Positions 1,280 through 32,396 of a stretch of DNA of 46,422 nucleotides are shown piece after piece; positions within the stretch are counted from its first letter, which is position 1, and each line of letters begins with the position of its first letter. The notes below the pieces were generated by a model that was given only the letters and a program-made list of their open reading frames with translations, searched no databases and was not told the origin of the DNA. Source of the DNA: an uncultured Clostridia bacterium (GTDB taxonomy: Bacteria; Bacillota; Clostridia; Lachnospirales; CAG-274); NCBI GenBank assembly GCA_944383875.1, contig CALWRD010000120.1, positions 1 through 46,422 of the forward strand, in the 5' to 3' direction. The position numbers and the translations under genes are program-made.

Positions 1280-1660
1280 ATAATTTACGTCAAGCTTGCT
1301 TGTAAGTAAATTATTTTTGCGAAGTATGAAAGGGGCGAATGCCCCGACAACGAAGCGGAGCTGGCAAAGCAAACGGAGCGAGTTGTCAACGCTGCGAATG
1401 AGGGCAGACCGAGAAAAGCAGTGATACGTCAAGCTTGCTTGTAAGTGAGGCTGGTTTATGAAGGATACAAGGGGCGAATGCCCCGACAACGAAGCGCAGT
1501 GAGCAAAGCGAACGTAGCGAGTTGTCAATGCTGCTAATGGCGATACGTTGAGATAGCGGTATGAACAGTCGGCAGTAAATGATGGAACCGGCGAAGGATA
1601 CAAGGGGCAAATGCCCCGACAACGAAACGCTGCAAATGGCGATAAGCCTGTAGATCACAT
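1280..1660. repeat. Degenerate tandem repeat, three copies (about 139, 119 and 100 nt), each with a GGGGC-NAAT-GCCCC hairpin, inside the rplW-rplB spacer
   Basis: Copies start near 1287, 1426 and 1545. Shared blocks are ACGTCAAGCTTGCTTGTAAGT (copies 1-2), GGGGCGAATGCCCCGACAACGAA (1332, 1471; GGGGCAAATGCCCCGACAACGAA at 1604), and GTTGTCAA(C/T)GCTGC(G/T)AATG. Confidence 0.8.
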
Positions 1661-1722
1661 CAATCAGATATAGTTATTGCACCACGTGTGCAGAGAATTA
1701 AAAGTTTAAAGGAGTGTAAATA

Positions 1723-2553
1723 ATGGGTATAAAGAGATTTAAGCCTTATACACCTTCGAGAAGACAGATGACAGTATCCGACTTCTCCGAAATCACAAAG
1801 TCCACCCCTGAAAAGAGCCTTACAGTACACATCAAGACTACTGCAGGTCGTAACAATCAGGGTAAGATCACTGTTCGTCACATCGGCGGCGGTGCTAAGA
1901 AGAAATACAGAATAATTGACTTTAAGAGAAATAAAGACGGCATCCCTGCAAAGGTTGTTGCTATCGAGTACGATCCAAACAGAACAGCAAACATCGCACT
2001 TTTAAGCTACGCTGACGGTGAAAAGAGATATATCCTTGCACCTAACGGTCTTAAGGTAGGCGATATGCTTTCAAGCGGTCCTGACGCTGAAATTCACGTT
2101 GGTAACGCTCTTCCTATGAGAAACATCCCTGTTGGTTCCGAAATTCATAACATTGAGATGAAGCCGGGCGCAGGCGGACAGCTTGTAAGAAGTGCAGGCA
2201 ACGTTGCTCAGCTTATGGCTAAGGAAGGCAAGTATGCTACAGTAAGGCTCCCATCCGGCGAGATGAGACTTCTTCCTATTGATTGTCGCGCTACTATCGG
2301 TCAGGTTGGTAACATTGATCACGAGCTTATCAACATCGGTAAGGCAGGTAAAAAGCGTCACATGGGTATCAGACCTACAGTTCGTGGTTCCGTTATGAAC
2401 CCTAACGATCACCCACACGGTGGTGGTGAAGGTAGAGCACCTGTTGGTCGTCCTGCACCTTGCACACCTTGGGGCAAGCCTGCACTTGGTTATAAGACCA
2501 GAAAGAAGCATAAGGCAAGCAACAAGTACATTGTACGTACCAGAAAAGGCTGA
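1723..2553 (+). CDS. rplB: 50S ribosomal protein L2
   Basis: 276 aa with [22 protein letters not shown] and [14 protein letters not shown] motifs. AAAGGAG RBS upstream. Confidence 0.96.
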
Positions 2554-2572
2554 TTAAGCAGGAGGGTAAATA

Positions 2573-2857
2573 ATGAGCAGATCACTTAAAAAAGGACCAT
2601 TCTGTGACGACCACCTTATGAAGAAGGTTGTAGCTCAGAATGAAGCAAATACAAAGAACGTTATTAAGACATGGTCACGCCGTTCTACTATCTATCCTGA
2701 GATGATAGGTCATACTATTGCAGTTCATGACGGCAGAAAGCACGTACCTGTTTATATAACAGAGGATATGGTTGGACACAAGCTCGGTGAGTTCGCCCTT
2801 ACAAGAACCTACAGAGGTCACGGTAAGGACGCTGAGAAGAAGTCCGGCGTACGTTAA
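2573..2857 (+). CDS. rpsS: 30S ribosomal protein S19
   Basis: 94 aa; [10 protein letters not shown]...[23 protein letters not shown]. Confidence 0.96.
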
Positions 2858-2891
2858 TTATACGTAATATTTGAAAGGAGGAGCCTTAAAG

Positions 2892-3281
2892 ATGGCAAAA
2901 GGACACAGAAGCCAGATTAAGAAGGAAAGAAATGAGCAGAACAGAGATAAAAGAGCTCAGGCTCATGCTAAGTTCGTCAGAGTTTCCGACAGTAAGGCCA
3001 GAATAGTTTTAAATCAGATTAAGGGCAAGAGTGTTGGCGAGGCGCTTGCTATCCTTGCTTACTCACCACGCTACGCTGCTGAGATAATAGAAAAGGTTTT
3101 AAAGTCTGCTATAGCTAATGCAGAGAACAACCTTGAGTTAGATGTTGAAAAGCTCTATGTTGCAGATGCGGTTGCTAATCAGGGACCTACTCTTAAGAGA
3201 ATTCGCCCAAGGGCACAGGGCAGGGCTTACAGAATTAACAAGAAAACAGCTCACATCTCAATATATCTTGAAGAGAAATAA
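2892..3281 (+). CDS. rplV: 50S ribosomal protein L22 (with basic N-terminal extension)
   Basis: The tracked ORF starts at TTG 2871, inside the GAAAGGAGG RBS. ATG 2892 ([11 protein letters not shown]...) has correct spacing. The core [23 protein letters not shown]...[20 protein letters not shown] is L22. Confidence 0.92.
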
Positions 3282-3292
3282 GGAGGACAACG

Positions 3293-3955
3293 ATGGGTCA
3301 GAAGGTAAATCCACACGGATTAAGAGTCGGCATCATCAAGGACTGGGATTCAACCTGGTATGCCGATAAGAAGGATTATGCTAACTTCCTTGTGGAAGAT
3401 AACAAGCTTAGAACTTACATCAAGGAAAGATTAAATAACTCCGGTGTTTCAAGAATTAACATCGAGAGAACCAATGACAGAGTAAAGATTACTATCCATA
3501 CTTCAAAGCCGGGCGTAATCATCGGAAGAAACGGTGCTGCTATTCAGGAGCTTTCCGCTGTACTTCAGTCTATGTCCGCACAGAAAGTTATGGTAAACAT
3601 TGAGGAAATTAAGCGTCCTGAGCTTGATTCCCAGCTTGTAGCTGAGGATATTGCTAAGCAGCTTGAAAACCGTATCACCTTCCGTCGTGCTATGAAGAAG
3701 GCTATGCAGAACACCATGAGAAGCGGTGCTAAGGGTATCAAGACTTCCTGCTCCGGTCGTTTGGGTGGTGCTGAAATGGCTCGCAGCGAGCACTATCATG
3801 ACGGTACTATTCCTCTTCAGACATTGAGGGCAGATATTGACTATGGTTTTGCTGAGGCTAACACAACTTACGGCAAGATCGGTGTTAAGGTATGGATCTA
3901 CAAAGGTGAGGTTCTTCCTGCTAAGAAGACTACTACGGAAGGCGGTGCTAAGTAA
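3293..3955 (+). CDS. rpsC: 30S ribosomal protein S3
   Basis: 220 aa; [22 protein letters not shown]-like [10 protein letters not shown], and [12 protein letters not shown]. Confidence 0.96.
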
Positions 3956-4386
3956 TGTTAATGCCTAAGAGAGTTAAAAGACGTAAGCAGTTCAGAGGCA
4001 GAATGACCGGTAAGGCTATGAGAGGCAACAAGATCACTTACGGTGAGTTTGGTATCGTTGCTATGGAGCCAAGCTGGATCACCTCAAACCAGATTGAGGC
4101 AGCCAGAATTGCTATGACAAGATATATCAAGCGTGGCGGTAAGGTTTGGATTAAGATTTTCCCAGATAAGCCTGTTACCGAGAAGCCTGCCGGTACTCGT
4201 ATGGGTAGTGGTAAGGGTACTCCTGAGCGTTGGGTAGCTGTTGTTAAGCCCGGACGCGTTATGTTTGAGATTGCCGGTGTAAGCGAGGAGGTAGCAAGAG
4301 AGGCACTTCGTCTTGCTGTTCACAAATTACCTATTAAGTGTAAGATTGTATCTCGCGCTGACCTCGAAATGGAGGGTAATGAGTAA
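3955..4386 (+). CDS. rplP: 50S ribosomal protein L16
   Basis: 143 aa; [17 protein letters not shown]. The start overlaps the rpsC stop (TAATG). Confidence 0.95.
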
Positions 4387-4592
4387 TGAAGAGTAAAAAC
4401 TATGTTGAGGAACTTAAGGCTAAGACAAATGAGGAGCTTAACGCAGCTCTTGTTGACGCTAAGAAGGAACTGTTTAATTTAAGATTTCAGAATGCTACAA
4501 ATCAGCTGAGCAATACAGCAAGGATCACTGAGGTTCGTAAGAACATAGCTCGTATCCAGACTGTTATCACTCAGAAGAACAAGGGTATTTGA
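4386..4592 (+). CDS. rpmC: 50S ribosomal protein L29
   Basis: 68 aa; the start overlaps the rplP stop. [14 protein letters not shown] motif. Confidence 0.93.
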
Positions 4593-5282: not shown

Positions 5283-5609
5283 GTGAAGATTAAAAAGGGC
5301 GATAAGGTTCAGATTATTGCAGGCAAGGATAAGGGTAAGTCCGGTAAGGTACTTGTTGCTGACGCTAAGAACAATAAGGTTATTGTTGAGGGCTGCAATA
5401 TGGTTTCTAAGCATGTTAAGCCTAGCGCAATGACTACTCAGAGCGGTATCATCACTAAGGAAGCGCCTCTTGACGCCTCCAACGTAATGTACCTTTACAA
5501 CGGAAAGCCTGCCAGACTTGGTTATAAGGTTGAAGTTGTAAATGAAAACGGCAAGGATAAAAAGGTTAAGCACAGAGTGGTTAAGTCCACAGGCGAAACT
5601 ATTGATTAA
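5283..5609 (+). CDS. rplX: 50S ribosomal protein L24
   Basis: GTG 5283 follows AAGGAGG. It gives the canonical MKIKKGDKVQIIAGKDKGKSGKV (KOW). The tracked ORF start at 5250 overlaps the rplN 3' end. Confidence 0.92.
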   Translation: MKIKKGDKVQIIAGKDKGKSGKVLVADAKNNKVIVEGCNMVSKHVKPSAMTTQSGIITKEAPLDASNVMYLYNGKPARLGYKVEVVNENGKDKKVKHRVVKSTGETID

Positions 5610-5634
5610 TTCCCGAAAGGAGGCAAACTGAACT

Positions 5635-6174
5635 GTGAACACTTTAAGAGAGTATTATGAGAAGGAAATCGTACCTGCAATGGTAAGTAAGTTCTCATAT
5701 AAAAATATAATGGAAGTACCCAAGATCGAAAAGATCGTTATCAATATGGGTCTTGGTGAAGCTAAGGAAAACTCAAAGGCTATGGACGGCGCTGTTAATG
5801 ATATGACTATCATTGCAGGTCAGAAGCCTGTTATCACCAAAGCTAAGAAGTCTATCGCTAACTTCAAGCTCCGTGCAGGTATGCCTATCGGTTGTAAGGT
5901 TACCTTAAGAGGAGAGAAAATGTACAGCTTTGCAAACAGACTTATCAATTTAGCACTCCCTCGTGTACGTGACTTCCGTGGCGTAAGCGCTGAGTCCTTC
6001 GACGGCAGAGGCAACTACACTCTTGGCGTTAAGGAGCAGCTTATGTTCCCTGAAATTCAGTACGATAAGATTGATAAAATCAGAGGTATGGATATCGTAT
6101 TCGTAACTACCGCAAAGACTGATGAAGAGGCTAGAGAATTACTTAGATTATTCGGTATGCCATTTAAGAAGTAA
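5635..6174 (+). CDS. rplE: 50S ribosomal protein L5
   Basis: 179 aa; GTG start after [24 protein letters not shown] and [11 protein letters not shown] motifs. Confidence 0.95.
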
Positions 6175-7762: not shown

Positions 7763-8269
7763 GTGAGAAAAATTATAGATGCAAGCACACTTGATTTGCA
7801 GGATAAGGTTGTTACAATCAAGAGAGTAACAAAGGTTGTTAAGGGCGGTCGTACCTTCCGTTTTGCTGCGCTTGTGGTTGTAGGCGACTACAACGGTCAC
7901 GTAGGCGTAGGTCTTGGCAAGGCAACTGAAATTCCTGACGCTATCCGCAAGGGCAAGGATGATGCTATTAAGAATCTTATCTATGTTGAGAGAGATGAAA
8001 ACAACAGTATTTACCATGAGGTACTCGGTAAGTTCGGCAGCGCAAATGTACTTCTTAAGCCTGCTCCCGAAGGTACCGGTATCATCGCCGGCGGTCCTGC
8101 CCGTGCCGTACTTGAGCTTGCGGGTATCAAGAACATCAGGACAAAGTCCATCGGTTCCAACAACAAGAGGAACGTTGTAAATGCTACTATCGAGGGTCTC
8201 AGCTCCGTTACTTCTCCAGAGAAGATTGCAAGGCTTCGTGGTAAGACAATCGAAGAAATTTTAGGTTAA
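7763..8269 (+). CDS. rpsE: 30S ribosomal protein S5
   Basis: 168 aa; GTG start; [22 protein letters not shown]. Confidence 0.95.
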
Positions 8270-8282
8270 GGGGGATATTGAG

Positions 8283-8456
8283 ATGTTAAAGATTACTTTA
8301 GTTAAATCTACAATAGGTGCAATCCCTAAGCATAAAAAGACTGTGGCTGCTCTTGGACTTCATAAGCCAAACACAAGCGTTGAGCAGCAGGATACACCTG
8401 CTATCAGAGGTATGATCAAGCAGGTAAACCACTTAGTGAAGGTTGAGGAAATATAA
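8283..8456 (+). CDS. rpmD: 50S ribosomal protein L30
   Basis: 57-aa ORF below the ORF-track cutoff: [57 protein letters not shown]. It lies between rpsE and rplO as expected, with a GGGGGA RBS. Confidence 0.9.
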
Positions 8457-8476
8457 TATTAGGAGGTGTAACGGCA

Positions 8477-8920
8477 ATGTATTTACACGAATTAAAACCT
8501 GCCGAGGGTTCCGTAACTAACGGCTTCAGAAGAGGCAGAGGTCACGGCTCCGGTAACGGCAAGACCGCAGGTAAGGGTCACAAGGGTCAGAACGCTCGTT
8601 CAGGCGGCGGTGTAAGACCGGGCTTTGAAGGTGGTCAGATGCCTTTATACAGAAGAATACCAAAGAGAGGCTTTAAGTGCATTAACACTAAGGAAATAGT
8701 AGCAATTAACTTATCTCTCTTGAACAGCGTATTTGAAGACGGCGCCGTAGTTGATATAGATGCCCTTAAGGCTAAGGGTCTTGTGAGCCATGTAAGAGAT
8801 GGCGTTAAGATTTTAGGCAACGGCGAAATTACAAAGAAGCTTACTGTTAAGGTTAATTATTTCAGTGCTTCTGCTAAGGAGAAGATTGAGGCCGCAGGCG
8901 GAAAAGCTGAGGTGATTTGA
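8477..8920 (+). CDS. rplO: 50S ribosomal protein L15
   Basis: 147 aa; [26 protein letters not shown]. Confidence 0.95.
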
Positions 8921-10161
8921 TGCTTACTACACTGAGAAATGCATGGAAGATTAAAGAAATCAGAACCAGATTGTTGTACATGCTTTTGATCCTGTTGATT
9001 GTAAGAATCGGTACCCACCTTCCCGTACCGGGCGTTGACCTTACGCAGCTTGATTCTGCAAGCGGCGGCACACTTTACAGCCTTATTACAGGCGGTAATT
9101 ACGGTACTATTTTTGCCATGGGTATCGGACCATACATCAATGCTTCGATTATTATGCAGCTTTTAACTGTTGCTATCCCAAGATTGGAGCAGATTAATAA
9201 AGAAGGCGAAGAGGGACGTAAGAGAATAGCGCAGTACACAAGAGTTTGTACTGTCGCTCTTGCTCTCCTTCAGGGCTGTGGACAGGTGTTCACTATAAGG
9301 GGCGCTTTTACCAACCCTAACTTCTTTGTTTATGGTGTGGCTCTTTTAGCTATGATCACAGGTACCGTTTTTGTTATGTGGCTCGGTGAGCAGCTTAACG
9401 AAAAGGGCATCGGCAACGGTTCTTCGTTTATCATTGCAGCAAACATCCTTTCCGGTCTGCCAAACGGCATTATGAGTATGTATGTGGAAGGCTCCGGCGC
9501 AGGTATCATGGGCTGGGTAAAGGTAGCAGTTGTACTCCTTATCCTTCTGGTTGATATGATCTTTGTTATTGTTGTACAGGATGGCGAAAGAAGAATTCCT
9601 GTTCAGTATTCAAAGAAAATGGTGGGCAGAAGAATGATGGGCGGACAAACCTCCTTTATTCCTATCAAGGTTAATATAGCAGGCGTTATGTCAATCATCT
9701 TTGCTATTTCCCTGCTTCAGTTCCCACAGACCATATATCAGCTGTGGCAGCCTGAGCTTCTGGGTACTATCGTTGCAGTGCTTGATGTAACCACAAGCCC
9801 TATAGGTGCAGCGCTTTATGTTATACTTATTTTCTGCTTCACCTTCTTCTATACATCATTCTCCTTTAACCCAATTGAGGTTGCGGAGAATATTAAGAAG
9901 AGCGGCGGCTTTATTCCCGGTATCAGACCCGGTAAGCCAACCTCCGATTTTATCCAGACGGTTGTTGACAGGATGTCTTTAATCGGTGCTTGCACATATG
10001 CAATTATTGCTCTTATACCTTCTCTTTTCAGTATGGTATTTGGTGTAAACATTGGTTTCGGCGGCACAACACTCCTTATCGTAACGGGTGTTGCTCTTGA
10101 TATATTCAAGAAGATGGAATCTCAGATGGTAATGCGTCATTACAAGGGATTTCTTGACTGA
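8920..10161 (+). CDS. secY: Preprotein translocase subunit SecY
   Basis: About 413 aa, polytopic. [18 protein letters not shown]...GPYINASIIMQLL. ATG 8920 (GAGGTG 6 nt upstream) is preferred to the tracked TTG 8917. It overlaps the rplO stop. Confidence 0.95.
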   Translation: MLTTLRNAWKIKEIRTRLLYMLLILLIVRIGTHLPVPGVDLTQLDSASGGTLYSLITGGNYGTIFAMGIGPYINASIIMQLLTVAIPRLEQINKEGEEGRKRIAQYTRVCTVALALLQGCGQVFTIRGAFTNPNFFVYGVALLAMITGTVFVMWLGEQLNEKGIGNGSSFIIAANILSGLPNGIMSMYVEGSGAGIMGWVKVAVVLLILLVDMIFVIVVQDGERRIPVQYSKKMVGRRMMGGQTSFIPIKVNIAGVMSIIFAISLLQFPQTIYQLWQPELLGTIVAVLDVTTSPIGAALYVILIFCFTFFYTSFSFNPIEVAENIKKSGGFIPGIRPGKPTSDFIQTVVDRMSLIGACTYAIIALIPSLFSMVFGVNIGFGGTTLLIVTGVALDIFKKMESQMVMRHYKGFLD

Positions 10162-10204
10162 TAATTTTCGGTCGAAATTGCTTTAGATATAATAATAAAT
10201 CAAG

Positions 10205-10240
10205 TCGGGAGGCGCACGGCGTCCCCCGATTTGTTCTTTT
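10205..10240 (+). terminator. GC-rich hairpin plus T-rich tail between secY and adk (intra-cluster terminator or attenuator)
   Basis: TCGGGAGGCG (10205-10214) pairs with CGTCCCCCGA (10220-29) with one mismatch and one G-U, followed by TTTGTTCTTTT. Confidence 0.55.
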
Positions 10241-10345
10241 CTACAACACATATATAAAGGAAGAAACACATCCTGTTATGGGATGGGTTAGGGTTTATGG
10301 GTTTCCATTTAAATAACCCAAATACATTTATAAGGAAGTAATATT

Positions 10346-10978
10346 ATGAAGCTTGTTTTGGTAGGTTGTCCGGGTGCGGGAAAAGGTACTCAGGCAGAAA
10401 AGCTTTCAAAACATTACGGCATTGCACATATTTCAACAGGTGATCTCTTAAGAGACCAGATAGCAAGAGGTACAGAGCTTGGCAAAAAGGTAAGCAAGAT
10501 TATGGAAGAGGGCGGTCTTGTATCGGATGAGATTGTTTCTTCAATGCTTGCGGAAAGAATTAAGGATGAGGACTGCAAAAACGGTTATATTCTTGACGGT
10601 TACCCACGTAACCTTGCACAGGCAGAGGGACTTGAGGCAATCACAGGTCCTCTTGACAAGGTAATCTGTATAGATGTGGACGACAACGTTATTGTTGACC
10701 GTATGACAGGCAGAAGAAGCTGTCCTAACTGCAAGGAAATGTATCACATCAAGTATAATCCTCCAAAGGTAGAGGGTGTATGTGATGACTGCGGTACTAA
10801 GCTTGTTCAGCGTAAGGATGATAACGAGGAAACAGTACTTAACAGACTTAAGGTATATCATGAGACAACAGCTCCTCTTATTGAGTATTACAAGGGCAAG
10901 GGAATACTTGCAACAGTTAAGGGCGTAGGCGATATCAATGAGATCTTCGCTGAGATATGCAGAGTCCTTGAGGGCTGA
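10346..10978 (+). CDS. adk: Adenylate kinase (zinc-lid type)
   Basis: 210 aa; GCPGAGKGTQ P-loop. The lid carries CPNC...CDDC. Confidence 0.95.
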   Translation: MKLVLVGCPGAGKGTQAEKLSKHYGIAHISTGDLLRDQIARGTELGKKVSKIMEEGGLVSDEIVSSMLAERIKDEDCKNGYILDGYPRNLAQAEGLEAITGPLDKVICIDVDDNVIVDRMTGRRSCPNCKEMYHIKYNPPKVEGVCDDCGTKLVQRKDDNEETVLNRLKVYHETTAPLIEYYKGKGILATVKGVGDINEIFAEICRVLEG

Positions 10979-10980
10979 AA

Positions 10981-11736
10981 ATGGCAATAAAAATAAAAAG
11001 AGAACAGCAGATTAAAAAGATGAGGCTTGCCGGAGAAATAACCGGCAGGACCTTAAATCTGCTTAAAGATAAAATTGTTCCCGGAATTACAACATTTGAG
11101 CTTGACAAAATTGCTGAATCGTATATAATGGAATGTGGAGCGTTGCCATCCTTTAAGGGGTACAGCGGTTACCCCGCTTCTATTTGTACATCAATTAATG
11201 ACGAGGTTGTACACGGTATCCCGTCTAAGGACAGGGTGCTTAAGGAGGGCGATATTATCTCGATAGATGTGGGAGCATATATTGATTCCTTCCATGGAGA
11301 TGCCGCCCGTACCTTTGCTGTGGGAACTGTTTCACCCGAAAAGCAAAGGCTTATTGCTGTAACCGAGGAAAGCTTCTTTGCAGGTATTAAGTATGCCGCA
11401 GCAGGGAATAATCTATGTGAAATTTCATCAGCCATACAGGATACGGTGGAGCGTAACGGCTTCAGTGTTATACGTGATTATGTGGGTCACGGTATCGGCA
11501 GGAATTTGCATGAGGATCCCGCAATACCTAACTACCGCAACGGCAGACGAGGACCGGTGCTTAAGCCCGGTATGGTGCTTGCCGTTGAGCCTATGACGGC
11601 TATAGGGACTCATAGGGTGCGCGTGCTTTCAGACGGCTGGACTGCAGTTACCAAAGACGGTCTGCCATCTGCGCACTATGAAAACACGGTGCTTATTACC
11701 GAAGGAGAGCCTGAGCTTCTAACACTGCTTATTTGA
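10981..11736 (+). CDS. map: Type I methionine aminopeptidase
   Basis: 251 aa; VVHGIPS, ISIDVGA, HGIGRNLHEDP and LAVEPM motifs. Follows adk as in the spc cluster. Confidence 0.93.
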   Translation: MAIKIKREQQIKKMRLAGEITGRTLNLLKDKIVPGITTFELDKIAESYIMECGALPSFKGYSGYPASICTSINDEVVHGIPSKDRVLKEGDIISIDVGAYIDSFHGDAARTFAVGTVSPEKQRLIAVTEESFFAGIKYAAAGNNLCEISSAIQDTVERNGFSVIRDYVGHGIGRNLHEDPAIPNYRNGRRGPVLKPGMVLAVEPMTAIGTHRVRVLSDGWTAVTKDGLPSAHYENTVLITEGEPELLTLLI

Positions 11737-17468: not shown

Positions 17469-19358
17469 ATGAAGAACCCCATTGTAAGTAAAATGGTTCT
17501 TCCTCAGTGTGTTACCGATATTTTAAATGCGGTGCCTGAGGTTATTGTACCTGAAAGCAGAGAGCACCTTTTTGATCTCTCATACGGCGGAAAGGGCAAT
17601 AAGACCTTTGATGTAAACTTTGACGTAAACGGAAAATCTGTTCGTGAAGCTTATGTAACAAGATGTAAGAACGGTATGGTTATCAATTTTGATGACAAGG
17701 CAATGCGCCGCCGTGACCCTAACTCTATGGTAATTGCGGATCATCTTCCTACAGATAAACCAACCTATGAGGAAAGATTCGGTATACCTTTTGACAGTGT
17801 ACGTGAGGAAACTTTTGAATGGCTTAAGGAGAGAGAATCACTTATAGCATTACCTTTCTATGCAGGTAACGAGGATCTTAAGCTCGGTTATCCATGTATT
17901 GCCATAGTACCTACCAACGCTGCATGCTTTGCGGCCATGCTTGCGGATATGCAGTGCTTTATTCCGGCAGATAAGGTACCTAACTTCTTTAAGCCAAAGG
18001 GAATTATATATGTGGCTCCACCTTTCCGTCACACTCATTTTGAAGGAAAGCAGGTTGTAGTACATAACCGTATGTACGATATGCAGGAAGTATTCAGCTA
18101 CAACCTCTATCCCGGTCCATCAGCCAAGAAGGGTGTTTACAGTATCCTTCTTAATATAGGCGAGCAGGAAAAGTGGGTAACTCTCCATGCATCAACAGTA
18201 AAGATCATTACTCCATATGAGTTGGAGCTTACTATTATGCACGAGGGTGCTTCAGGCGGCGGTAAGTCTGAGATGACTGAGCCTTTCCACAGAGAGCCTG
18301 ACGGTCGTCTGCTTCTTGCCACAAACACAATTACAGGTGAAAAGACTCTTGTAAATATTGCGGATACATCCGAGCTTCATCCTGTAACCGATGATATGGC
18401 ACTTGCTCATCCAAGTCTTCAGAACGACAGCAAGAAGCTTGTTGTTGCTGATGCTGAAAACGGTTGGTTCCTTAGGGTAAACCATATTGAGCATTACGGT
18501 ACAGAGCCTGAAACAGAGGCAGCTACCATCCATCCAAAGCAGCCTCTTATCTTCCTTAATATGCAGGCAGTTCCCGATTCTACCTGCCTCATTTGGGAGC
18601 ATATAGAGGATGAACCGGGTGTACCTTGCCCTAATCCAAGACTTATTATGTCAAGAAGACTTAAGAATAATATCGTAAGCGGTGCTGTTGAGGTTGATGT
18701 AAGAAGTTTCGGTGTTCGTACTCCACCTACAACCAAGGATAACCCTAACTACGGTATTATAGGTCTTTTCCATGTACTTCCACCTGCACTTGCATGGCTT
18801 TGGAGACTGGTTGCACCACGTGGTTTTGCTAATCCTTCTATTATAGACAACTCAGGCAATGCCCTTAAGAGTGAAGGCGTTGGTTCTTACTGGCCATTTG
18901 CTACAGGTAAGAAGGTTGATCAGGCTAATCTGCTCCTTGACCAGATCTTAAGCACACCTTCTACAAGATACATCCTTATACCTAACCAGTACATCGGCTG
19001 CTATAAGGTAGGTTTTGCAGGTCAGTGGGCTACAAGAGAGTACCTTTCAAGAAGGGGCGGCGCTAAGTTCAGACGTGAAATGCTTGATGAGGCAAGATGC
19101 CCAATCCTTGGTTACGCTCTTAAGTCTATGAAGATTGACGGAAACGACGTACCTAAGGGTCTTTTACAGGTAAATGAGCAGGAGAGAGTAGGCAACGAAG
19201 GTTACGATGCAGGCGCTAAAATCCTTACTGATTTCTTTAAGGAGCAGCTTGTTCAGTTCGATACTTCTTCGCTTGAGCCTCTTGGTCATCAGATTATTCA
19301 GGCTTGCCTTGACGATGCTTCTGTTCAGGATTACTACGATCTCATTCCTAAGCTTTGA
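17469..19358 (+). CDS. Large uncharacterized protein with an HprK/PEPCK-style P-loop (probably the DUF4914 family)
   Basis: 629 aa with a strong AAGGAGG RBS and a central MHEGASGGGKSEMTEP P-loop. Monocistronic, between its own promoter and the liv promoter. The family name is from memory only. Confidence 0.8.
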   Translation: MKNPIVSKMVLPQCVTDILNAVPEVIVPESREHLFDLSYGGKGNKTFDVNFDVNGKSVREAYVTRCKNGMVINFDDKAMRRRDPNSMVIADHLPTDKPTYEERFGIPFDSVREETFEWLKERESLIALPFYAGNEDLKLGYPCIAIVPTNAACFAAMLADMQCFIPADKVPNFFKPKGIIYVAPPFRHTHFEGKQVVVHNRMYDMQEVFSYNLYPGPSAKKGVYSILLNIGEQEKWVTLHASTVKIITPYELELTIMHEGASGGGKSEMTEPFHREPDGRLLLATNTITGEKTLVNIADTSELHPVTDDMALAHPSLQNDSKKLVVADAENGWFLRVNHIEHYGTEPETEAATIHPKQPLIFLNMQAVPDSTCLIWEHIEDEPGVPCPNPRLIMSRRLKNNIVSGAVEVDVRSFGVRTPPTTKDNPNYGIIGLFHVLPPALAWLWRLVAPRGFANPSIIDNSGNALKSEGVGSYWPFATGKKVDQANLLLDQILSTPSTRYILIPNQYIGCYKVGFAGQWATREYLSRRGGAKFRREMLDEARCPILGYALKSMKIDGNDVPKGLLQVNEQERVGNEGYDAGAKILTDFFKEQLVQFDTSSLEPLGHQIIQACLDDASVQDYYDLIPKL

Positions 19359-24465: not shown

Positions 24466-25038
24466 TTATTTATCTGTTTCAAAGGTATATTCACAGTGAT
24501 TTTGTATATCAAAGGTTGTGAAATATTTTTCTTCCATGGGGATCCATTTCGTTTGAAAAGCATTTAACGCTGTCTTGCCGTTACGCTTTTCTATACGCCT
24601 TAGTTGTTCTTCGGGACTAACTGACAGAAAAATATGTATGTCATAATATTTCCACAGCTCGGGATGACAACTGTATGAGCCTTCAACAACAGTAATATTT
24701 TTAGGGTTAATGTAAATCGGCTCTGCAAAGCTAAGGGTATGGCAGTCATAGGGACGGTAGGAGAAGGATTTGCCTTCCTTTAAAGGTATCAGTACTTCTT
24801 CCTTAAACCGTTCATAGTCAACATTTCCCCCTGCTTCCTTTAATCGTTCTTCTGTACGCTGTTCTTTTCTCAGAAAAAAATGATCCATATGTATTATATT
24901 GCAGTTAAGTTCCTTTTGCAGCATTGCAGCGATGGTGGTTTTTCCCGAGGCGGCTCTGCCATCTATTGCAATGAGCAGGGGATAATCTGTTATTTTATTT
25001 ATTGCAGGCAGCAGTGTACTGAGAATATCTTCCGTCAT
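24466..25038 (-). CDS. P-loop kinase of the uridine kinase / nicotinamide riboside kinase-like family
   Basis: 190 aa; LIAIDGRAASGKTTIAAMLQKELNCNIIHMDHFF (Walker A followed by a DxFF-type motif). The start overlaps the stop of the upstream S-component gene (ATGA). Confidence 0.8.
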   Translation of the reverse strand: MTEDILSTLLPAINKITDYPLLIAIDGRAASGKTTIAAMLQKELNCNIIHMDHFFLRKEQRTEERLKEAGGNVDYERFKEEVLIPLKEGKSFSYRPYDCHTLSFAEPIYINPKNITVVEGSYSCHPELWKYYDIHIFLSVSPEEQLRRIEKRNGKTALNAFQTKWIPMEEKYFTTFDIQNHCEYTFETDK

Positions 25039-25607
25039 TGTTTTTTCTCCGTATTAATTACGGCAGTATGCTGTTTTTTGAACTTTACAAGACCGGTTCT
25101 GTTAAGTTCAAGCATAATCACCGGGATAAGTATGAGCTGAAGTATTATACCGGGAACAGCATTTAAAAATGCCCCTGCCATAAACATCTGCCAAGTAAAT
25201 CCGCTTCCGCTTAAACCAAGTAATATTATTTGTACTATGCCCCAAACCGCACGTCCTGCCGCCATAGCGGCAATCATAGAACGATAGAGGGAAATAATAC
25301 ACTGCCAGCGTGAGCGGTTGTATAAAAAACCGATAATAAATCCATAGGTCATCAGTTCAAATGACATTGATATACCTGTAGGAAAAATTATTGGCATACC
25401 GAAGATGGAATATCTCAAAAGGGGTAGTATAAAGCCTACGATTGCACCGTACTGCCAGCCGCATATTAAGCCGCAAAGGAATACGGGTATATGCATTGGC
25501 AGCAGCATATTGCCTATCTGTGGTATTTGCCCCGTAAACAATGGCAGTACCAGACCGATGGCAAGGAACATAGCTGCCAAAGTCATATTTTTAACGTTTT
25601 TACTCAT
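25035..25607 (-). CDS. ECF transporter S component (substrate-specific membrane protein, substrate unknown)
   Basis: 190 aa with about six hydrophobic helices. MTLAAMFLAIGLVLPLFTG...LLPMHIPVFLCGLICGWQYGAIVGFILPLL is typical of the ECF_trnsprt-type S component. No ecfA/ecfT genes are adjacent. Confidence 0.75.
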   Translation of the reverse strand: MSKNVKNMTLAAMFLAIGLVLPLFTGQIPQIGNMLLPMHIPVFLCGLICGWQYGAIVGFILPLLRYSIFGMPIIFPTGISMSFELMTYGFIIGFLYNRSRWQCIISLYRSMIAAMAAGRAVWGIVQIILLGLSGSGFTWQMFMAGAFLNAVPGIILQLILIPVIMLELNRTGLVKFKKQHTAVINTEKKQ

Positions 25608-25619
25608 ATTATCCTCTCC

Positions 25620-26678
25620 TTATTCATCAACACTGACAAGGTTATAGGTACGGCTTCCGAGTCCGATTTGTTCGGCGTGTTCCAAAGTGTGAAGACCGTT
25701 GCGGGATTCGATTCTTTCAACAAGGGAAGCCCCATCCCCATCCTGTTGTTCATATACAAGGTCGATACAAGCCTGATCCAATGCAACAGGGTCCGTTGAA
25801 GCCAGTATACCTATGTCGTGCATATCAGGTTCGGCAGGATTGCCGTCACAGTCACAGTCCACCGACAGACGGTTCATTACATTGACATATGCTATGTTTT
25901 CACCGTTATTTAAGTAATCGGATACGGACTTGCCTGCCTCAGCCATGGACTCAAGAAATGGATCCTGCTCGCCGCCCCATGGGTCGGTGCTGCTCTCCCC
26001 TGCGCTGTGGATAAGGCACTTACCCTCTGTTGAGCCGAGTCCGATGGAAATATTCTTTATAGCGCCGCCGAAGCCTGCCATTGCATGACCTTTAAAGTGG
26101 GAAAGCACTAAGTAGGAGTCATAATCGGCAAAGTGAGCACCCACAAGGTTTTCTTTAAGCTGAGTGCCGCCTTCAACGGGCAGGCTCATTGAACCATCTT
26201 CATCTAAGATTCGGAAGTCGGCTATTGCCGTAAATCCGTGGTCTTCCGCTACCTGATAGTGCATGGCTGTTTCCGCACGGGAACCGCCGTAGGCTGTGTT
26301 GCACTCCACTATGGTGCCGTCAACGGACTGTACCAGATCTTTAATAAGGTCGGGATCAAGGTAATTGCTGGCAGGAGGTTCTCCCGTGGAGAGCTTAACC
26401 GCAACATTTCCCTCGGGTGTCCAGTTGAGTGCACCATATACTGCCATTAATCCTTCGGGACTTATGTCGGTGGTCATATATACAACGGGAGAAGCGGTAT
26501 CTGCCGCATCTTTATTTTCCGTACTCTCTTGTGAAGAGGTGGTGTTTTCGGTTGTTTCCGTTGTACTTTCGGTAGTTGTGGTGGTTTCGGGAATCAGAAT
26601 ATCCCCTCCACAGCCCGATAAAAGCGTGGATGTAACTGCAAGTGATGTAACAAGTGAAATGATCCTGTTATTAATCAT
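25620..26678 (-). CDS. DUF362-like lipoprotein with Thr/Ser/Glu-rich linker
   Basis: 352 aa; signal peptide plus lipobox (LLSGCGG), then the linker TTTTTESTTETTENTTSSQEST. SHFKGHAMAGFGGAIKNISIG and GILASTDPVALDQACIDLV resemble DUF362 motifs (from memory). AAAGGAGG RBS. Confidence 0.75.
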   Translation of the reverse strand: MINNRIISLVTSLAVTSTLLSGCGGDILIPETTTTTESTTETTENTTSSQESTENKDAADTASPVVYMTTDISPEGLMAVYGALNWTPEGNVAVKLSTGEPPASNYLDPDLIKDLVQSVDGTIVECNTAYGGSRAETAMHYQVAEDHGFTAIADFRILDEDGSMSLPVEGGTQLKENLVGAHFADYDSYLVLSHFKGHAMAGFGGAIKNISIGLGSTEGKCLIHSAGESSTDPWGGEQDPFLESMAEAGKSVSDYLNNGENIAYVNVMNRLSVDCDCDGNPAEPDMHDIGILASTDPVALDQACIDLVYEQQDGDGASLVERIESRNGLHTLEHAEQIGLGSRTYNLVSVDE

Positions 26679-29711: not shown

Positions 29712-29742
29712 TAAAAACGGCTGTCGTACTTGCGGCAGCCGT
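29712..29742 (-). terminator. Rho-independent terminator of the B12-regulated operon
   Basis: Minus strand: ACGGCTG-CCGCAAGTACGA-CAGCCGT followed by TTTTTAA, about 34 nt after the stop at 29776. Confidence 0.65.
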
Positions 29743-29775: not shown

Positions 29776-31392
29776 TTATTTCTTTTTCGTTCCCTGCGCA
29801 TAGGTAATAATAACAGCTAGCCTCTTTCTTGTCAAGTCTGTAAAGGCTGTTACAGGGTCAAATTTTTTCTGCATTGATGTGATTTGATCGTTATAACTGC
29901 TGTCGGAACTTTCTTTTGTATAGTCGGTAACATAATACAGCTGTATAATATCGCCATCGGAAAGCTTAATACTGCCCATACTTGCTTCTGGCTCCCTGCC
30001 GTTTATGCTGTATTTCCAGCCGCTGTTTACACCCATATCAAACTCGTACAGAAGATGGGAACTGTCCTCGCCGATAGCGGAAATATATATGCTTTCTTCA
30101 TCACCTGTGGCGGCATATGTCAGTCCTTGATTGTCAAGGGCAGCTTTCACTGCCGTCCATACGCTTGAGCCTGCGTATACGCTTACCGTGTCAGTAAAAT
30201 CAAAGGCGTAACAGGGTTCTTCCAGTGTTGATACGGTTACGCTTATGCTGATGCGCTTGGTGCTGCTTCCGCCTCCTCCGCCCGGACGATTTGAGACGGC
30301 TTCGGTGGTTGTTTCGGTTGAAGCGGCGGTTTCGGCGGTTGGCTTGGCAGAAGTTGTTTCGGTAATTGTTATTTGTGCCGAGGTACTGATTTCTGTTGTA
30401 CTTTCGGCAGTGCTTTCTTCGGCAGCGAAAGAGGTACTTTCGGTGGTACTTTCTATGGCAGCGGTTGTGCTTTCGGTAGAGGGAAGGTCAATGCTGCCTC
30501 CACCGAAACGGAATATATAAACTTTGTTTTCTCCGTTAAGCTGCCTTTTTACGGACACCATGGCTCTGAATGCCTGTTCCGTTGAAAGTGAATTGTGCCG
30601 TGTGTTTGTAAAGCCGAAGGTATAGTCCTCATTCATAAAGGTAAGCAAACCTTCAAGAGAATTTCCGGATTTGATAAAACGGCTGTCGGTGAATATGTCC
30701 ACACCTGCCCCACACAGGGCATTTATAGCAACCGATGTGGAATTGGAATTTTCGACTCCGTAGCGATTGCAGAATGCGCCGCTTTCTCCCTGCATTTGTG
30801 CAAGTGCCTCAATGCCTTTTTCCACGGCTTCGGTGCATTGCTCATATGGGGAAAGAGCCAATATTGCAAGGGAGGTGTTGTCCGTGTCGATTACCGCAGC
30901 TGCTCCAAAGCCTCCAAGTTCATTTTGAGAGGCGAGAATACCGTCAATGAGCTGCTGCCTTGCCAACGGACGGTCATAGCCGTAGGAATCCAGTGCAAGC
31001 AGACCGAATATAAGCTGATTAATTGACATACCATGTATATTTTCACAGATGTAGTCGACAAGCTCCTCATCCCTTATACCTACAGCACTTTTCATTATCA
31101 GTATACGCTCGGCATCGGTTACAAGGCGTATTTCATCATCAATGTTTTCAACATAGCTGCGCATTTCTTCACTTATACAGCCGTCTGCTGCCATATCCGG
31201 CACATACCAGTCACTTATTACTCCTTTTGCATATACTTCGCTTACAACTGCCTCAACTGCCGAAGCGGTTGTAGAAATATCGTGGGATGCTGCATATAAC
31301 ACGTCAGTACCTATACTTGCAAAGGAAAGACTGTTGCCGGAAATTAGTATTGCTGCCGCAAGCAGCAGGGAAATCCATCGCTTAAGCTGCAT
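29776..31392 (-). CDS. Secreted two-domain protein: prenyltransferase-like alpha/alpha-toroid repeats, Thr/Ser/Glu linker, C-terminal DUF4430 (transcobalamin-like) domain
   Basis: 538 aa. Signal peptide MQLKRWISLLLAAAILISGNSLSFA. QNELGGFG and QGESGAFC repeats. Linker STESTTAAIESTTESTS...GGGGGS. C-terminal SGWKYSINGREPEASMGSIKLSDGDIIQLYY. Overlaps the upstream gene by 11 nt. Confidence 0.8.
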   Translation of the reverse strand: MQLKRWISLLLAAAILISGNSLSFASIGTDVLYAASHDISTTASAVEAVVSEVYAKGVISDWYVPDMAADGCISEEMRSYVENIDDEIRLVTDAERILIMKSAVGIRDEELVDYICENIHGMSINQLIFGLLALDSYGYDRPLARQQLIDGILASQNELGGFGAAAVIDTDNTSLAILALSPYEQCTEAVEKGIEALAQMQGESGAFCNRYGVENSNSTSVAINALCGAGVDIFTDSRFIKSGNSLEGLLTFMNEDYTFGFTNTRHNSLSTEQAFRAMVSVKRQLNGENKVYIFRFGGGSIDLPSTESTTAAIESTTESTSFAAEESTAESTTEISTSAQITITETTSAKPTAETAASTETTTEAVSNRPGGGGGSSTKRISISVTVSTLEEPCYAFDFTDTVSVYAGSSVWTAVKAALDNQGLTYAATGDEESIYISAIGEDSSHLLYEFDMGVNSGWKYSINGREPEASMGSIKLSDGDIIQLYYVTDYTKESSDSSYNDQITSMQKKFDPVTAFTDLTRKRLAVIITYAQGTKKK

Positions 31393-32080
31393 TGTTAAGG
31401 GTCCTGTTCAATATCCATGCGGCATCATTGGCAGTGAGGATACCGCTTCTGTCGTAGTCAGACACATCAAGGTCAATGGTGATTGAGTCGGCAAAACGAG
31501 TGTACTGCAATACAGCTGCGGCATCGTCTGCGGTAACTTTCCCGTCACTGTTGCTGTCTCCTCTTAATACATCGGATGTCATATCACAGCTTATACGGCT
31601 GTCAGCCAAAGCACGCATAGCCTCGAAATCCACAGGATCATATATAACTGCGTCCCAGTTTTCATCAAAATCACTTACATATTCCCACAGTATAAACATA
31701 CCGTCATATACCGTATATTCATTTGCGGCGGTTATGAGGGTGTTATAGCTGTCTACATAGTACAACCAACCGCTGGATGGACCGGTAAGTCCGCTGCCCT
31801 GACCGAAAAGAGTTTCATAATAGCTCAGTCCGCTGCCGGATACTACACTGTCAGTATTGTTTTCTATGGCATAGGTCACGTCGGATACGGTTGTACCTGC
31901 CGGTACGGTCAGCCTGCTGCAATTATAGCTTGTTATGGGCTGTGTCTTGTCGGCGGTGTTCCCCCCTCTTGCCATAAAGTAGACGGTTACGGTATCACCT
32001 TCTGCCGCAAATATGCTTAAGGGGCTTATTGCAGCCAGCATAAATACACAAAGCAGAAGGGATAAAATTTTGTTCTTCAT
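31382..32080 (-). CDS. Secreted DUF4430 (transcobalamin-like) domain protein with C-terminal type I dockerin
   Basis: 232 aa. Signal peptide MKNKILSLLLCVFMLAAISPLSIFA. DUF4430-like SSGWLYYVDSYNTLITAANEYTVYDGMFILWEY. Dockerin duplicated Ca-binding loops GDSNSDGKVTADDAAAVL and DYDRSGILTANDAAWIL. AAAGGAG RBS. Confidence 0.8.
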   Translation of the reverse strand: MKNKILSLLLCVFMLAAISPLSIFAAEGDTVTVYFMARGGNTADKTQPITSYNCSRLTVPAGTTVSDVTYAIENNTDSVVSGSGLSYYETLFGQGSGLTGPSSGWLYYVDSYNTLITAANEYTVYDGMFILWEYVSDFDENWDAVIYDPVDFEAMRALADSRISCDMTSDVLRGDSNSDGKVTADDAAAVLQYTRFADSITIDLDVSDYDRSGILTANDAAWILNRTLNNAA

Positions 32081-32112
32081 TTTTCTTTTCTCCTTTCATG
32101 CTGCCCAAGAGG

Positions 32113-32143
32113 CAAAAAAAATAGGCTATGCAAAGCAAAGCCC
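32113..32143 (-). terminator. Expression-platform terminator of the cobalamin riboswitch
   Basis: Minus strand: GGGCTTTGC-TTT-GCATAGCCT followed by ATTTTTTTT, 33 nt before the ATG at 32080. Confidence 0.6.
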
Positions 32144-32189
32144 ACTGCACCTACGGTGCCCTTGCCTTACTTCGGAAAACAAGTATTAA

Positions 32190-32300
32190 AAATACAACCT
32201 TAGGGTGCGTATCTGACTATTTATCACAGTGACCGGTTCGTACAGGATTTTCACCTGTTTCCGCTTATCGCACCATTACAGTGCTGACCTTAAGGCACGT
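32190..32300 (-). promoter_or_regulatory. Cobalamin (B12) riboswitch aptamer
   Basis: Minus-strand read: GTGCCTTAAGGTCAGCACTGTAATGGTGCGATAAGCGGAAACAGGTGAAAATCCTGTACGAACCGGTCACTGTGATAAATAGTCAGATACGCACCCTAAGGT. It contains GGAAAC-GGTGAAAATCC, CCGGTCACTGT and the B12-box-like AGTCAGATAC..GCACC, in the canonical order. The CCTTAAGG/CCCTAAGG P1 helix closes it. Confidence 0.8.
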
Positions 32301-32316
32301 ATTAAGTTATTCTATA

Positions 32317-32345
32317 ATGATAGCCTAAAACATTCCATCTGTCAA
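32317..32345 (-). promoter_or_regulatory. Sigma-A promoter driving the riboswitch operon
   Basis: Minus strand: TTGACA (32345-40), 17 nt, TATCAT (32322-17). Confidence 0.6.
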
Positions 32346-32371: not shown

Positions 32372-32396
32372 ATCTGCGGGTGCAGATATTTTTTTT
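32372..32396 (+). terminator. Orphan plus-strand terminator-like hairpin upstream of the relA promoter
   Basis: ATCTGC-GGGT-GCAGAT (32372-87) followed by ATTTTTTTTG. No plus-strand gene lies upstream for about 5 kb. Confidence 0.4.

Follow-up and report, generated by a model that had tools for sequence, protein, structure and literature searches.

A short cobalamin riboswitch ahead of two genes for predicted extracellular corrinoid-capture proteins in an uncultured Clostridia bacterium

Why should a cobalamin riboswitch stand in front of two genes for secreted proteins and no transporter? The question is raised by a leader on the minus strand (32113-32345) of a 46,422-nucleotide stretch, contig CALWRD010000120.1 of assembly GCA_944383875.1, from an uncultured Clostridia bacterium; this whole stretch is referred to here as the window, and the two open reading frames behind the leader as ORF1 and ORF2. 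A preliminary description of the locus presented the control of secreted proteins "instead of a transporter" as its surprise. Such a framing is misleading, in that the riboswitch operons of distant ORF2 relatives continue into a transporter of the ECF-CbrT type (ECF, energy-coupling factor) or into cobT, cobU and cobS, and in that proteins of this build had already been predicted, by Burroughs et al. in 2007 (PMC1796856), to capture B12 outside the cell as an arm of its uptake. As the operons of the relatives include importer or cob genes, the regulon logic, in which B12 represses B12 acquisition, is ordinary. The leader is likely to be a transcriptional OFF switch, responsive to cobalamin (corrinoid), on a two-gene operon for extracellular corrinoid-capture proteins, and the two-gene module probably forms the outer part of an uptake system, where B12 is caught. 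What is distinctive is the form that this takes, namely a minimal transporter-less module of two genes, a short class II-like aptamer followed by a conserved relay box, and a dockerin-bearing protein with a transcobalamin beta-like domain.

The identity of the aptamer is secure. Comparison of the whole 46-kb window with 4227 Rfam families by cmscan returned RF00174 as the sole match (E = 4e-6), its 37.7 bits exceeding the gathering score of 31.5, and the core motifs, the B12 box and the closing P1 helix are all found in the order and spelling given in the preliminary description (Table 1). The element is a genuine cobalamin riboswitch aptamer. Its alignment spans the full model, positions 1-189, with 3 nucleotides standing in for the 68 model positions of the P6 extension. 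The low score reflects the loss of this entire peripheral extension, the P7-P11 region of the class I (adenosylcobalamin-type) forms being absent from the RF00174 alignment and P6 itself being a 5-base-pair hairpin, ACUGU-GAUAA-AUAGU. It is on account of the replaced extension that the aptamer, 121 nucleotides in length, is filed as class II-like. The short-P6 "class II" form is the env8 hydroxocobalamin type reportedly described by Johnson et al. in 2012 and Polaski et al. in 2016/2017. With such forms of RF00174 the window element shares P1 to P6, the B12 box, the four-way junction, a position in the 5' leader and an OFF logic exerted through an expression platform.

The arrangement is also conserved. 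A short RF00174 aptamer (36.3-45.6 bits) lies on the same strand upstream of the orthologous gene pair on four other contigs (L001, L002, L014 and L016), and every orthologous module examined, that of the window included, is headed in this way. L001 and L002 have the same neighbourhood as the window and in L016 the module is likewise followed by murA, whereas the neighbourhood in L014 is entirely different. When the five leaders were aligned with the Rfam helices imposed, standard pairs filled 96.6% of the pair cells, against 33-48% when the 3' partners were slid by 1-3 columns. Changes on both sides of a pair were seen at seven pairs (three in P1, two in P2, one each in P3 and P5), a number reached in none of 500 column shuffles. 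Covariation over five related leaders is supportive rather than statistically rigorous, and it agrees with the covariance-model score. The B12 box sequence AGUCAGAUAC is identical in all five leaders, and the -35 hexamer is invariant in L001 and L002, where the -10 hexamer reads TATCAT or TATGAT. Two departures were noted among these loci. In L014 a palindrome-rich sequence of about 520 nucleotides (5350-5870), which has no Rfam match and may be a repeat element inserted in the leader, separates the riboswitch terminator from the start of the ORF1 homologue. In L001, otherwise syntenic with the window on the side of the riboswitch module and murA, relA is separated from the riboswitch promoter by three genes extra to those of the window (1425-4455), which encode a LysR regulator, a phosphodiesterase and a PBP-like binding protein.

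How might binding be converted into control? The leader holds promoter, aptamer, terminator, Shine-Dalgarno sequence and ATG in that order, and antiterminator alternatives are predicted in three lineages, which bears out the terminator-type OFF architecture put forward earlier. The promoter that had been described is present, and the aptamer match begins some 10 nucleotides downstream of its -10 hexamer. So is the hairpin with its eight U residues, which ends 33 nucleotides ahead of the first ATG; it folds at -12.1 kcal/mol (z = -3.1), with none of 200 shuffles as stable, and was missed by a consensus scanner because of an internal mismatch in the hairpin. Terminators of other sequence occupy the same place in L016 and L014, at -13.9 and -9.7 kcal/mol respectively. 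The Shine-Dalgarno sequence stands 9 nucleotides ahead of the ORF1 ATG, downstream of the terminator and with no obvious sequestration. An out-of-frame AUG (32099-32097, minus strand) overlaps it and opens a reading frame of 34 codons; the equivalent AUG in L002 shares the reading frame of the ORF1 homologue (MKGEIKMKNK...). On the other side of the leader there is an additional TTGACA (32371-32366, minus strand) and, on the plus strand at 32372-32396, between the promoters of the riboswitch and of relA, a terminator-like hairpin, ATCTGCGGGTGCAGAT, followed by T8. No plus-strand gene ends at this hairpin, which may block antisense or divergent transcription or form part of an A-rich upstream promoter element.

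Sensing and termination appear to be linked by a box of 17 nucleotides, ACUUGUUUUCCGAAGUA, which lies downstream of P1 and does not vary among the five leaders, unlike the sequence on its two sides. An invariant box with two alternative partners, the aptamer core and the antiterminator strand, sets these leaders apart from other RF00174 riboswitches. Folding gives four mutually exclusive pairings, those of the box with the aptamer core, of hairpin H1, of the antiterminator and of the terminator. Pairing between the 5' half of the box and the aptamer core strand GCGGAAACAGG is predicted at -12.7 kcal/mol, and in L014 at -10.3 kcal/mol with two A-to-G changes retained as G-U pairs. H1 forms part of the platform's minimum-energy fold, and across the five leaders 100% of its cells are paired, the sole changes being from U-A to U-G. 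The antiterminator is the minimum-energy fold (-18.8 kcal/mol) of a leader that ends before the 3' half of the terminator, and counterparts of it are predicted for L016 and L014, each complementary to its own, differing terminator. In the cobalamin riboswitches that have been studied a kissing loop between L5 and L13 couples sensing to the platform (PMC9600662), whereas in the relatives of the window leader this complementarity is not evident. The candidate partner of L5 is the box's U-rich loop. The duplex reaches -2.9 kcal/mol in the window, where 2% of shuffles are as good, and is unsupported in L001, L002, L016 and L014, where 57-71% are.

On the strength of these folds, the simplest reading of the platform would be a classical relay. 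At low intracellular corrinoid the aptamer would be empty and the 5' half of the box, CUUGUUUUCC, would pair with the core strand GCGGAAACAGG. The strand GAAGUAAGGC would then be free for the 5' half of the terminator, the antiterminator would form and RNA polymerase would read through. With corrinoid bound, the aptamer would be locked and the box would fold onto AAGGCAAG as H1, such that the antiterminator strand would be sequestered and the terminator with its U8 run would halt transcription 33 nucleotides ahead of ORF1. The minimum-energy fold of the full-length leader has the terminator formed whether or not the aptamer constraints are applied, and as this holds even without ligand the decision of the switch must be a kinetic one. 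The same fold favours a different view, in which the aptamer is real and control is translational or Rho-dependent, or in which the hairpin and U8 act as a constitutive attenuator. That the consensus scanner left the terminator uncalled, and that cobalamin riboswitches in Bacteroides act on translation (PMC13616437), are in keeping with such a view. However, the Shine-Dalgarno sequence and ATG lie 18-33 nucleotides past the U-run and are unpaired with the aptamer, three lineages have kept a hairpin and U-run of differing sequence, each with its matching predicted antiterminator, and the terminator/antiterminator pair is the usual design in Bacillota. Control by other means is accordingly given little probability beside a transcriptional OFF switch.

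Table 1. Features of the riboswitch leader and the two-gene operon (window coordinates).
Feature	Position	Strand	Basis
Sigma-70-type promoter: TTGACA (32345-32340), 17-nucleotide spacer, TATCAT (32322-32317)	32317-32345	-	11 of 12 consensus positions
Cobalamin riboswitch aptamer, short-P6 (class II-like)	32187-32307	-	RF00174 match; covariation in P1, P2, P3 and P5 (five orthologous leaders)
Aptamer core motif GCGGAAACAGGTGAAAATCCTGTAC	32264-32240	-	Direct sequence reading
Aptamer core motif CCGGTCACTGTGA	32236-32224	-	Direct sequence reading
B12 box AGTCAGATACGCACC	32218-32204	-	Direct sequence reading
P1 helix, CCTTAAGGT with ACCCTAAGG	32295-32287 with 32206-32198	-	Direct sequence reading
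Invariant box ACUUGUUUUCCGAAGUA (32184-32168) with hairpin H1, CUUGUUUU-CCGAAGU-AAGGCAAG (32183-32161); proposed anti-antiterminator, P13-like	32161-32184	-	Conservation and folding
Predicted antiterminator, GAAGUAAGGC (32173-32164) with GCUUUGCUUU (32141-32132), enclosing hairpin GCACC-GUA-GGUGC (32159-32147)	32132-32173	-	Folding
Leader intrinsic terminator, GGGCUUUGC-UUU-GCAUAGCCU (32143-32123), then A and U8 (32121-32114)	32114-32143	-	Folding
Shine-Dalgarno AAAGGAG (32096-32090) and ORF1 ATG (32080-32078)	32078-32096	-	Direct sequence reading
ORF1, 232 residues: signal peptide, one divergent DUF4430/SLBB (transcobalamin beta-like) domain, type I dockerin	31382-32080	-	Sequence, Pfam, profile comparison
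Type I dockerin of ORF1 (residues 174-226), Ca-binding repeats DSNSDGKVTADD and DYDRSGILTAND	31403-31561	-	Dockerin_1 (PF00404)
ORF2, 538 residues: signal peptide, alpha/alpha toroid (residues 40-300; 31275-30493), Thr/Ser-rich linker, DUF4430 beta-domain (residues 378-500; 30261-29893), C-terminal helix	29776-31392	-	Pfam, AlphaFold2, Foldseek
Operon-end intrinsic terminator ACGGCUG...CAGCCGU and U5	29713-29742	-	-13.1 kcal/mol; 1 of 200 shuffles as stable

What, then, does the switch control? The two reading frames overlap by 11 nucleotides, and both begin, as had been stated, with Sec-type signal peptides visible in the sequence. The transcobalamin-like domains that had been ascribed to the pair are clearest in ORF2, where DUF4430 (PF14478) scores 42.3 bits against a cutoff of 23.8, with a divergent DUF4430 in ORF1. 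An AlphaFold2 model of ORF2, built on 39 homologues, places a helical toroid and a beta-rich domain on either side of a disordered, Thr/Ser-rich linker of about 75 residues, the predicted local distance difference test score (pLDDT) being about 85-98 over most of residues 40-300 and 378-500. When this model was compared with the PDB by Foldseek the best 15 matches were all full-length transcobalamin, haptocorrin or intrinsic factor, over about 500 columns (E = 2.6e-11 to 3e-7). The isolated transcobalamin beta-domain came next in the ranking, ahead of the terpene cyclases, the list including 5np4, in which that domain was deposited with cyanocobalamin. The model is an open, apo form with a root-mean-square deviation of 13-17 A to the holo structures. 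By this modelling ORF2 has the architecture and fold of transcobalamin, and it shares the two-domain plan of the mammalian carriers transcobalamin, haptocorrin and intrinsic factor (2bb5, 4kki, 2pmv), from which it differs in its identity of 10-14%, its disordered linker and its terpene-cyclase-like toroid repeats. At the level of sequence profiles the transcobalamin beta-domain is reached at E = 0.017-0.06, and no Pfam family of eukaryotic cobalamin binders is matched at E < 0.1. As the similarity lies in fold and architecture, ORF2 is a structural analogue or distant homologue and not a member of the eukaryotic family.

The toroid itself raises a further possibility. By sequence it lies nearest to squalene-hopene and drimenyl-diphosphate cyclases (E = 5e-13), above the alpha-domain of transcobalamin, and its Pfam matches, to SQHop_cyclase_C and Prenyltrans, are weak ones to the same group. 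Could ORF2 be a surface enzyme of the terpene-cyclase or prenyltransferase kind, or a cell-wall protein unrelated to B12, with the riboswitch adjacent by chance? The structural match to terpene cyclases is confined to the toroid (about 280 columns, E > 1e-4), whereas the B12 carriers match in both domains; ORF2 is secreted; and the linkage to riboswitches is repeated in independent lineages with different riboswitch subtypes. A fortuitous neighbour of this kind is highly improbable.

Proteins with this combination of domains have been considered before, and the general kind of system to which ORF2 belongs is known by prediction, as Burroughs et al. 2007 describe such proteins as B12 scavengers. 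In defining the SLBB superfamily they noted that bacteria secrete its members or display them at the surface, often with an alpha/alpha toroid fused to them, that the same operon often encodes a further, paralogous SLBB protein, and that the genes generally lie beside CbiO/CbiQ genes. The proteins with both toroid and SLBB were predicted to scavenge B12 at the cell surface (PMC1796856). ORF2 resembles them in being secreted, in the fusion of toroid to SLBB and in its above-cutoff DUF4430. The window operon departs from theirs in having no transporter and in the dockerin of the partner protein. A Gram-positive anchor motif and immunoglobulin (Ig), FIVAR or fasciclin domains are listed in that paper, which makes no mention of either dockerins or riboswitches.

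Linkage to B12 is seen again in the distant relatives of ORF2, which were located in genome contigs with an alignment of the eight closest sequences. At 25-32% identity these are large surface proteins, anchored by SLH domains or in the membrane, from Oscillospiraceae, other Clostridia and Paenibacillus. For instance, in Eubacterium sp. UBA3782 (L004) an RF00174 element of 97.7 bits precedes genes for a 1398-residue protein with toroid and DUF4430, a 384-residue DUF4430 protein, CbiQ (the ECF T component), a double ATPase and an S component. This S component matches PDB 6FNP at E = 3.5e-14, a structure that the search tool labels "Membrane protein" and that is reportedly ECF-CbrT (Santos et al. 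2018). In a Paenibacillus sp. isolate (L020, GCA_028765165.1) an element of 110.7 bits is followed by genes for DUF4430+SLH, toroid+SLH and DUF4430 proteins, CbiQ and an ATPase/S-component fusion. Both operons resemble that of the window in having a cobalamin riboswitch directly ahead of genes for a surface protein of the toroid/DUF4430 kind and for a second protein with DUF4430. They differ in their full-length class I aptamers (98-111 bits), in their giant SLH-anchored proteins (1400-1600 residues) and in running on into the ECF T component, A-A' and a CbrT-like S component, whereas the window has a compact pair of 232 and 538 residues, a short aptamer, a dockerin and a terminator of its own.

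Other relatives vary the theme. In L003 an RF00174 element of 51.8 bits precedes genes for a 2382-residue toroid/DUF4430 surface protein, an AP-endonuclease-2-fold protein, CobT, CobU and CobS; in L007 one of 58.4 bits precedes the gene for a 1615-residue surface protein; and in L011 an RF01482 element of 57.8 bits precedes genes for secreted proteins of 285 and 1625 residues. In L003 the stretch 8003-11110, downstream of the surface-protein gene, holds cobT, cobU and cobS and, ahead of them, a gene for an AP-endonuclease-2 or xylose-isomerase-like triose-phosphate isomerase barrel. This is the fold of the cobamide-remodelling enzyme CbiR, which would suggest an operon for the capture, remodelling and rebuilding of cobamides. 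Transport genes of the CbiO/CbiQ (ECF) type are present in the operons of L004, L005, L006, L008 and L020. A permissive Rfam search found no cobalamin element in L005, L006, L008, L012 and L013, where the start of the operon lies outside the locus in several cases. With a riboswitch at 9 of the 14 loci that have a relative and usable upstream sequence, the linkage is not universal. A metagenome scan with the ORF2 family gave just three distant loci, none with a riboswitch within 2 kb.

This linkage also bears on whether a corrinoid or another tetrapyrrole is the ligand of the proteins. In Lactobacillus sakei the ECF operon lsa1836-1840, which encodes separate transcobalamin alpha-like and beta-like secreted proteins and is the one related operon with an experimental study, was reported to contribute to heme uptake (10.1101/864751), and on this precedent the window proteins could bind heme or a related tetrapyrrole, with the riboswitch coupling their expression to B12 status indirectly. 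Yet the genes stand directly behind a cobalamin riboswitch in all orthologous modules examined and in several distant relatives, whose operons contain a CbrT-like S component or cobT, cobU and cobS. The best structural matches of ORF2 are moreover B12 carriers in both domains, and the text on L. sakei has no occurrence of the word riboswitch. Heme is therefore retained as a rival of low probability, and corrinoid capture as the preferred reading.

The dockerin of ORF1, the first protein of the operon, scores 25.3 bits against a cutoff of 22.9 and has two D-x-D/N-x-D-G loops visible in its sequence; Dockerin_1 is found in 9 of 10 members of the ORF1 family (best E = 1.5e-9), and the family profile matches the dockerins 1daq and 2mte in the PDB at E = 7e-6. 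The beta-domain is recognised mainly through the family, with DUF4430 matched by 7 of 10 members (best E = 1.3e-6) and a profile alignment (hhalign) of the ORF1 family with the ORF2 beta-domain giving E = 2.3e-4 with shared SGWxYxV and DGxxI motifs. Foldseek with a low-confidence ORF1 model lists the transcobalamin and haptocorrin beta-domains first (E = 0.006-0.05), which is merely supportive. Relatives of ORF1 (P0053-55 and P0057-59) have 355-383 residues and two tandem DUF4430-like domains where ORF1 has one, the alignment indicating a clean in-frame collapse between the repeats with the loss of one domain. Since six or more independent assemblies share the 232-residue form, it represents natural variation and no artefact of assembly. 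When ORF1 was compared by HMMER with 1.84 billion representative proteins, three clusters were found at E <= 1e-30. Two further matches (P0132 and P0235) cover nearly the whole query, DUF4430 region and dockerin, and the remaining matches cover the dockerin alone or SLBB alone. With some 3-5 clusters among so many proteins, the combination of DUF4430 and dockerin is rare. A metagenome scan with the ORF1 family gave no matches. The dockerin and the collapse of a two-domain protein are, as read from the sequences, locally unusual features that the preliminary description had missed, and it is likewise unusual, on the same comparison, for a dockerin to stand where relatives have SLH anchors. The C-terminal segment of ORF2 (residues ~505-538; 29776-29880, minus strand), predicted as a single helix, aligns through AFTDL...TRKRLAVIITY with the first (F-x-D) and last (TR-x-x-A-x-x-L) SLH motifs of the distant relatives and, on this alignment, may be a vestigial SLH anchor.

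A dockerin of this type would imply retention at the cell surface. A parallel is offered by the dockerin proteins of the Ruminococcus bromii amylosome (Ze et al. 2015, PMC4611034), some of which likewise combine a signal peptide and a type I dockerin with no glycoside hydrolase. One of them has a "putative terpene cyclase" module, which may, by analogy, be the same kind of toroid as that of ORF2. No link to B12 or a riboswitch is made for R. bromii, and in the window the dockerin is carried by the beta-domain protein and not by the toroid protein. The following route may be proposed. Both proteins would be exported through their Sec signal peptides by this Gram-positive gut anaerobe of the Clostridia; ORF2 would clamp a corrinoid between toroid and beta-domain; ORF1, tethered by its dockerin to a cohesin-bearing scaffoldin on the cell surface, would bind the corrinoid itself or take it from ORF2, and would hand it to a membrane importer, of the ECF-CbrT or BtuFCD kind, whose genes lie in another part of the genome. 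The more specific version of this proposal, in which corrinoid capture is displayed through cohesin and dockerin under riboswitch control, with ORF1 plugged into a scaffoldin of the amylosome or cellulosome type, ORF2 a free or loosely attached partner and the importer elsewhere, is a tentative one to which somewhat less than an even chance is given. Literature searches returned no paper combining cobalamin, riboswitch and dockerin and, for DUF4430, PF14478 and CbrT with extracellular, no experimental description of this arrangement.

A functional analogy is offered by Bacteroides thetaiotaomicron, in which the riboswitch-repressed surface proteins BtuG, BtuH and BtuJ capture corrinoids and feed an importer (PMC13616437). 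The folds are unrelated (BtuJ being DUF4465), the proteins are lipoproteins of the outer membrane and delivery is to the TonB-dependent BtuB; neither ORF1 nor ORF2 has a Pfam match to these families, DUF4465 for example. Bacteroides also releases vesicles decorated with BtuJ, which form extracellular reservoirs of cobamide (PMC13616437), and this suggests that the window proteins might bind corrinoid without feeding an importer, so as to sequester or hoard B12 from competitors as a released "cobalaminophore" or a storage pool. In favour of such a role, the operon contains no transporter, none lies nearby in the window, and the SLH or transmembrane anchors seen in its relatives are missing from ORF2. 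Nevertheless, to be repressed by B12 is what would be expected of a system that acquires it, the relatives are joined into importer operons and the dockerin of ORF1 implies surface retention. Sequestration and delivery are not mutually exclusive, and hoarding on its own is considered rather unlikely. Capture for uptake remains the preferred interpretation.

Against this interpretation must be set, in addition to the cyclase-like toroid sequence, the heme-linked operon of L. sakei, the terminator-bearing fold of the full-length leader and the unsupported kissing loop, a number of further points. Every step of the proposed mechanism is in silico; ligand binding, the course of switching, display at the surface and hand-off are inferred, whereas aptamer identity, covariation, terminators, protein folds and the linkage to B12 riboswitches, ECF-CbrT and cob genes are seen in the sequences and models. 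The DUF4430 match of ORF1 itself, at 15.9 bits, falls under the Pfam cutoff of 23.8, and the AlphaFold2 model built for this protein is of low quality (pLDDT 54). The scanned reading frames of the 46-kb window include no cohesin, and the window contains no B12 importer or B12-dependent enzyme. One candidate for the missing importer, an ECF S component about 4 kb downstream (25035-25607), was rejected, as it resembles neither the CbrT-like S component of L004 (E = 0.12) nor any PDB chain and has no riboswitch.

The remainder of the window is ordinary core chromosome, with a ribosomal protein operon, secY, rpoA, a LIV-type ATP-binding cassette system, relA, hisS, aspS and nrdD. The operon ends, as had been described, at its own terminator before murA (29546-28278, minus strand), which has a promoter-like site of its own at 29621-29593, and no CbiO/CbiQ-type (ECF) transport genes lie within the operon that this terminator closes. 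The S component just mentioned belongs to a separate operon (24466-26678, minus strand) with a DUF362 protein and a P-loop kinase, a trio kept in L001, for which the Rfam scan of the window detected no riboswitch. On the plus strand, 17469-19358 encodes a 629-residue protein that is wholly DUF4914 (1040 bits) and highly conserved across many assemblies.

Current understanding is not overturned by this locus, the regulatory logic of which is as expected. Its interest lies elsewhere. Gram-positive gut bacteria compete with Bacteroides and with the host for the same pool of B12, and extracellular cobamide capture in Gram-positive Firmicutes has been said, in a 2026 review, to remain "entirely uncharacterized" (PMC13616437). 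With its 121-nucleotide aptamer, its clean terminator platform and two small soluble proteins of 232 and 538 residues, against 1400-2400 residues in relatives, the locus is a compact example and a compact experimental entry point both into this capture and into the bacterial homologues of transcobalamin. Since animal transcobalamin has been proposed to derive from such bacterial relatives (PMC1796856), the study of binding and structure in proteins of the ORF2 type would bear on that evolutionary claim. The dockerin suggests that modules for nutrient capture may be mounted on scaffolds of the cellulosome or amylosome type. If the proposal is true, the module would represent, in a Gram-positive bacterium, a counterpart to the BtuG/H/J relay of Bacteroides, and dockerin scaffolds would here serve the capture of a vitamin and not the breakdown of polysaccharide.

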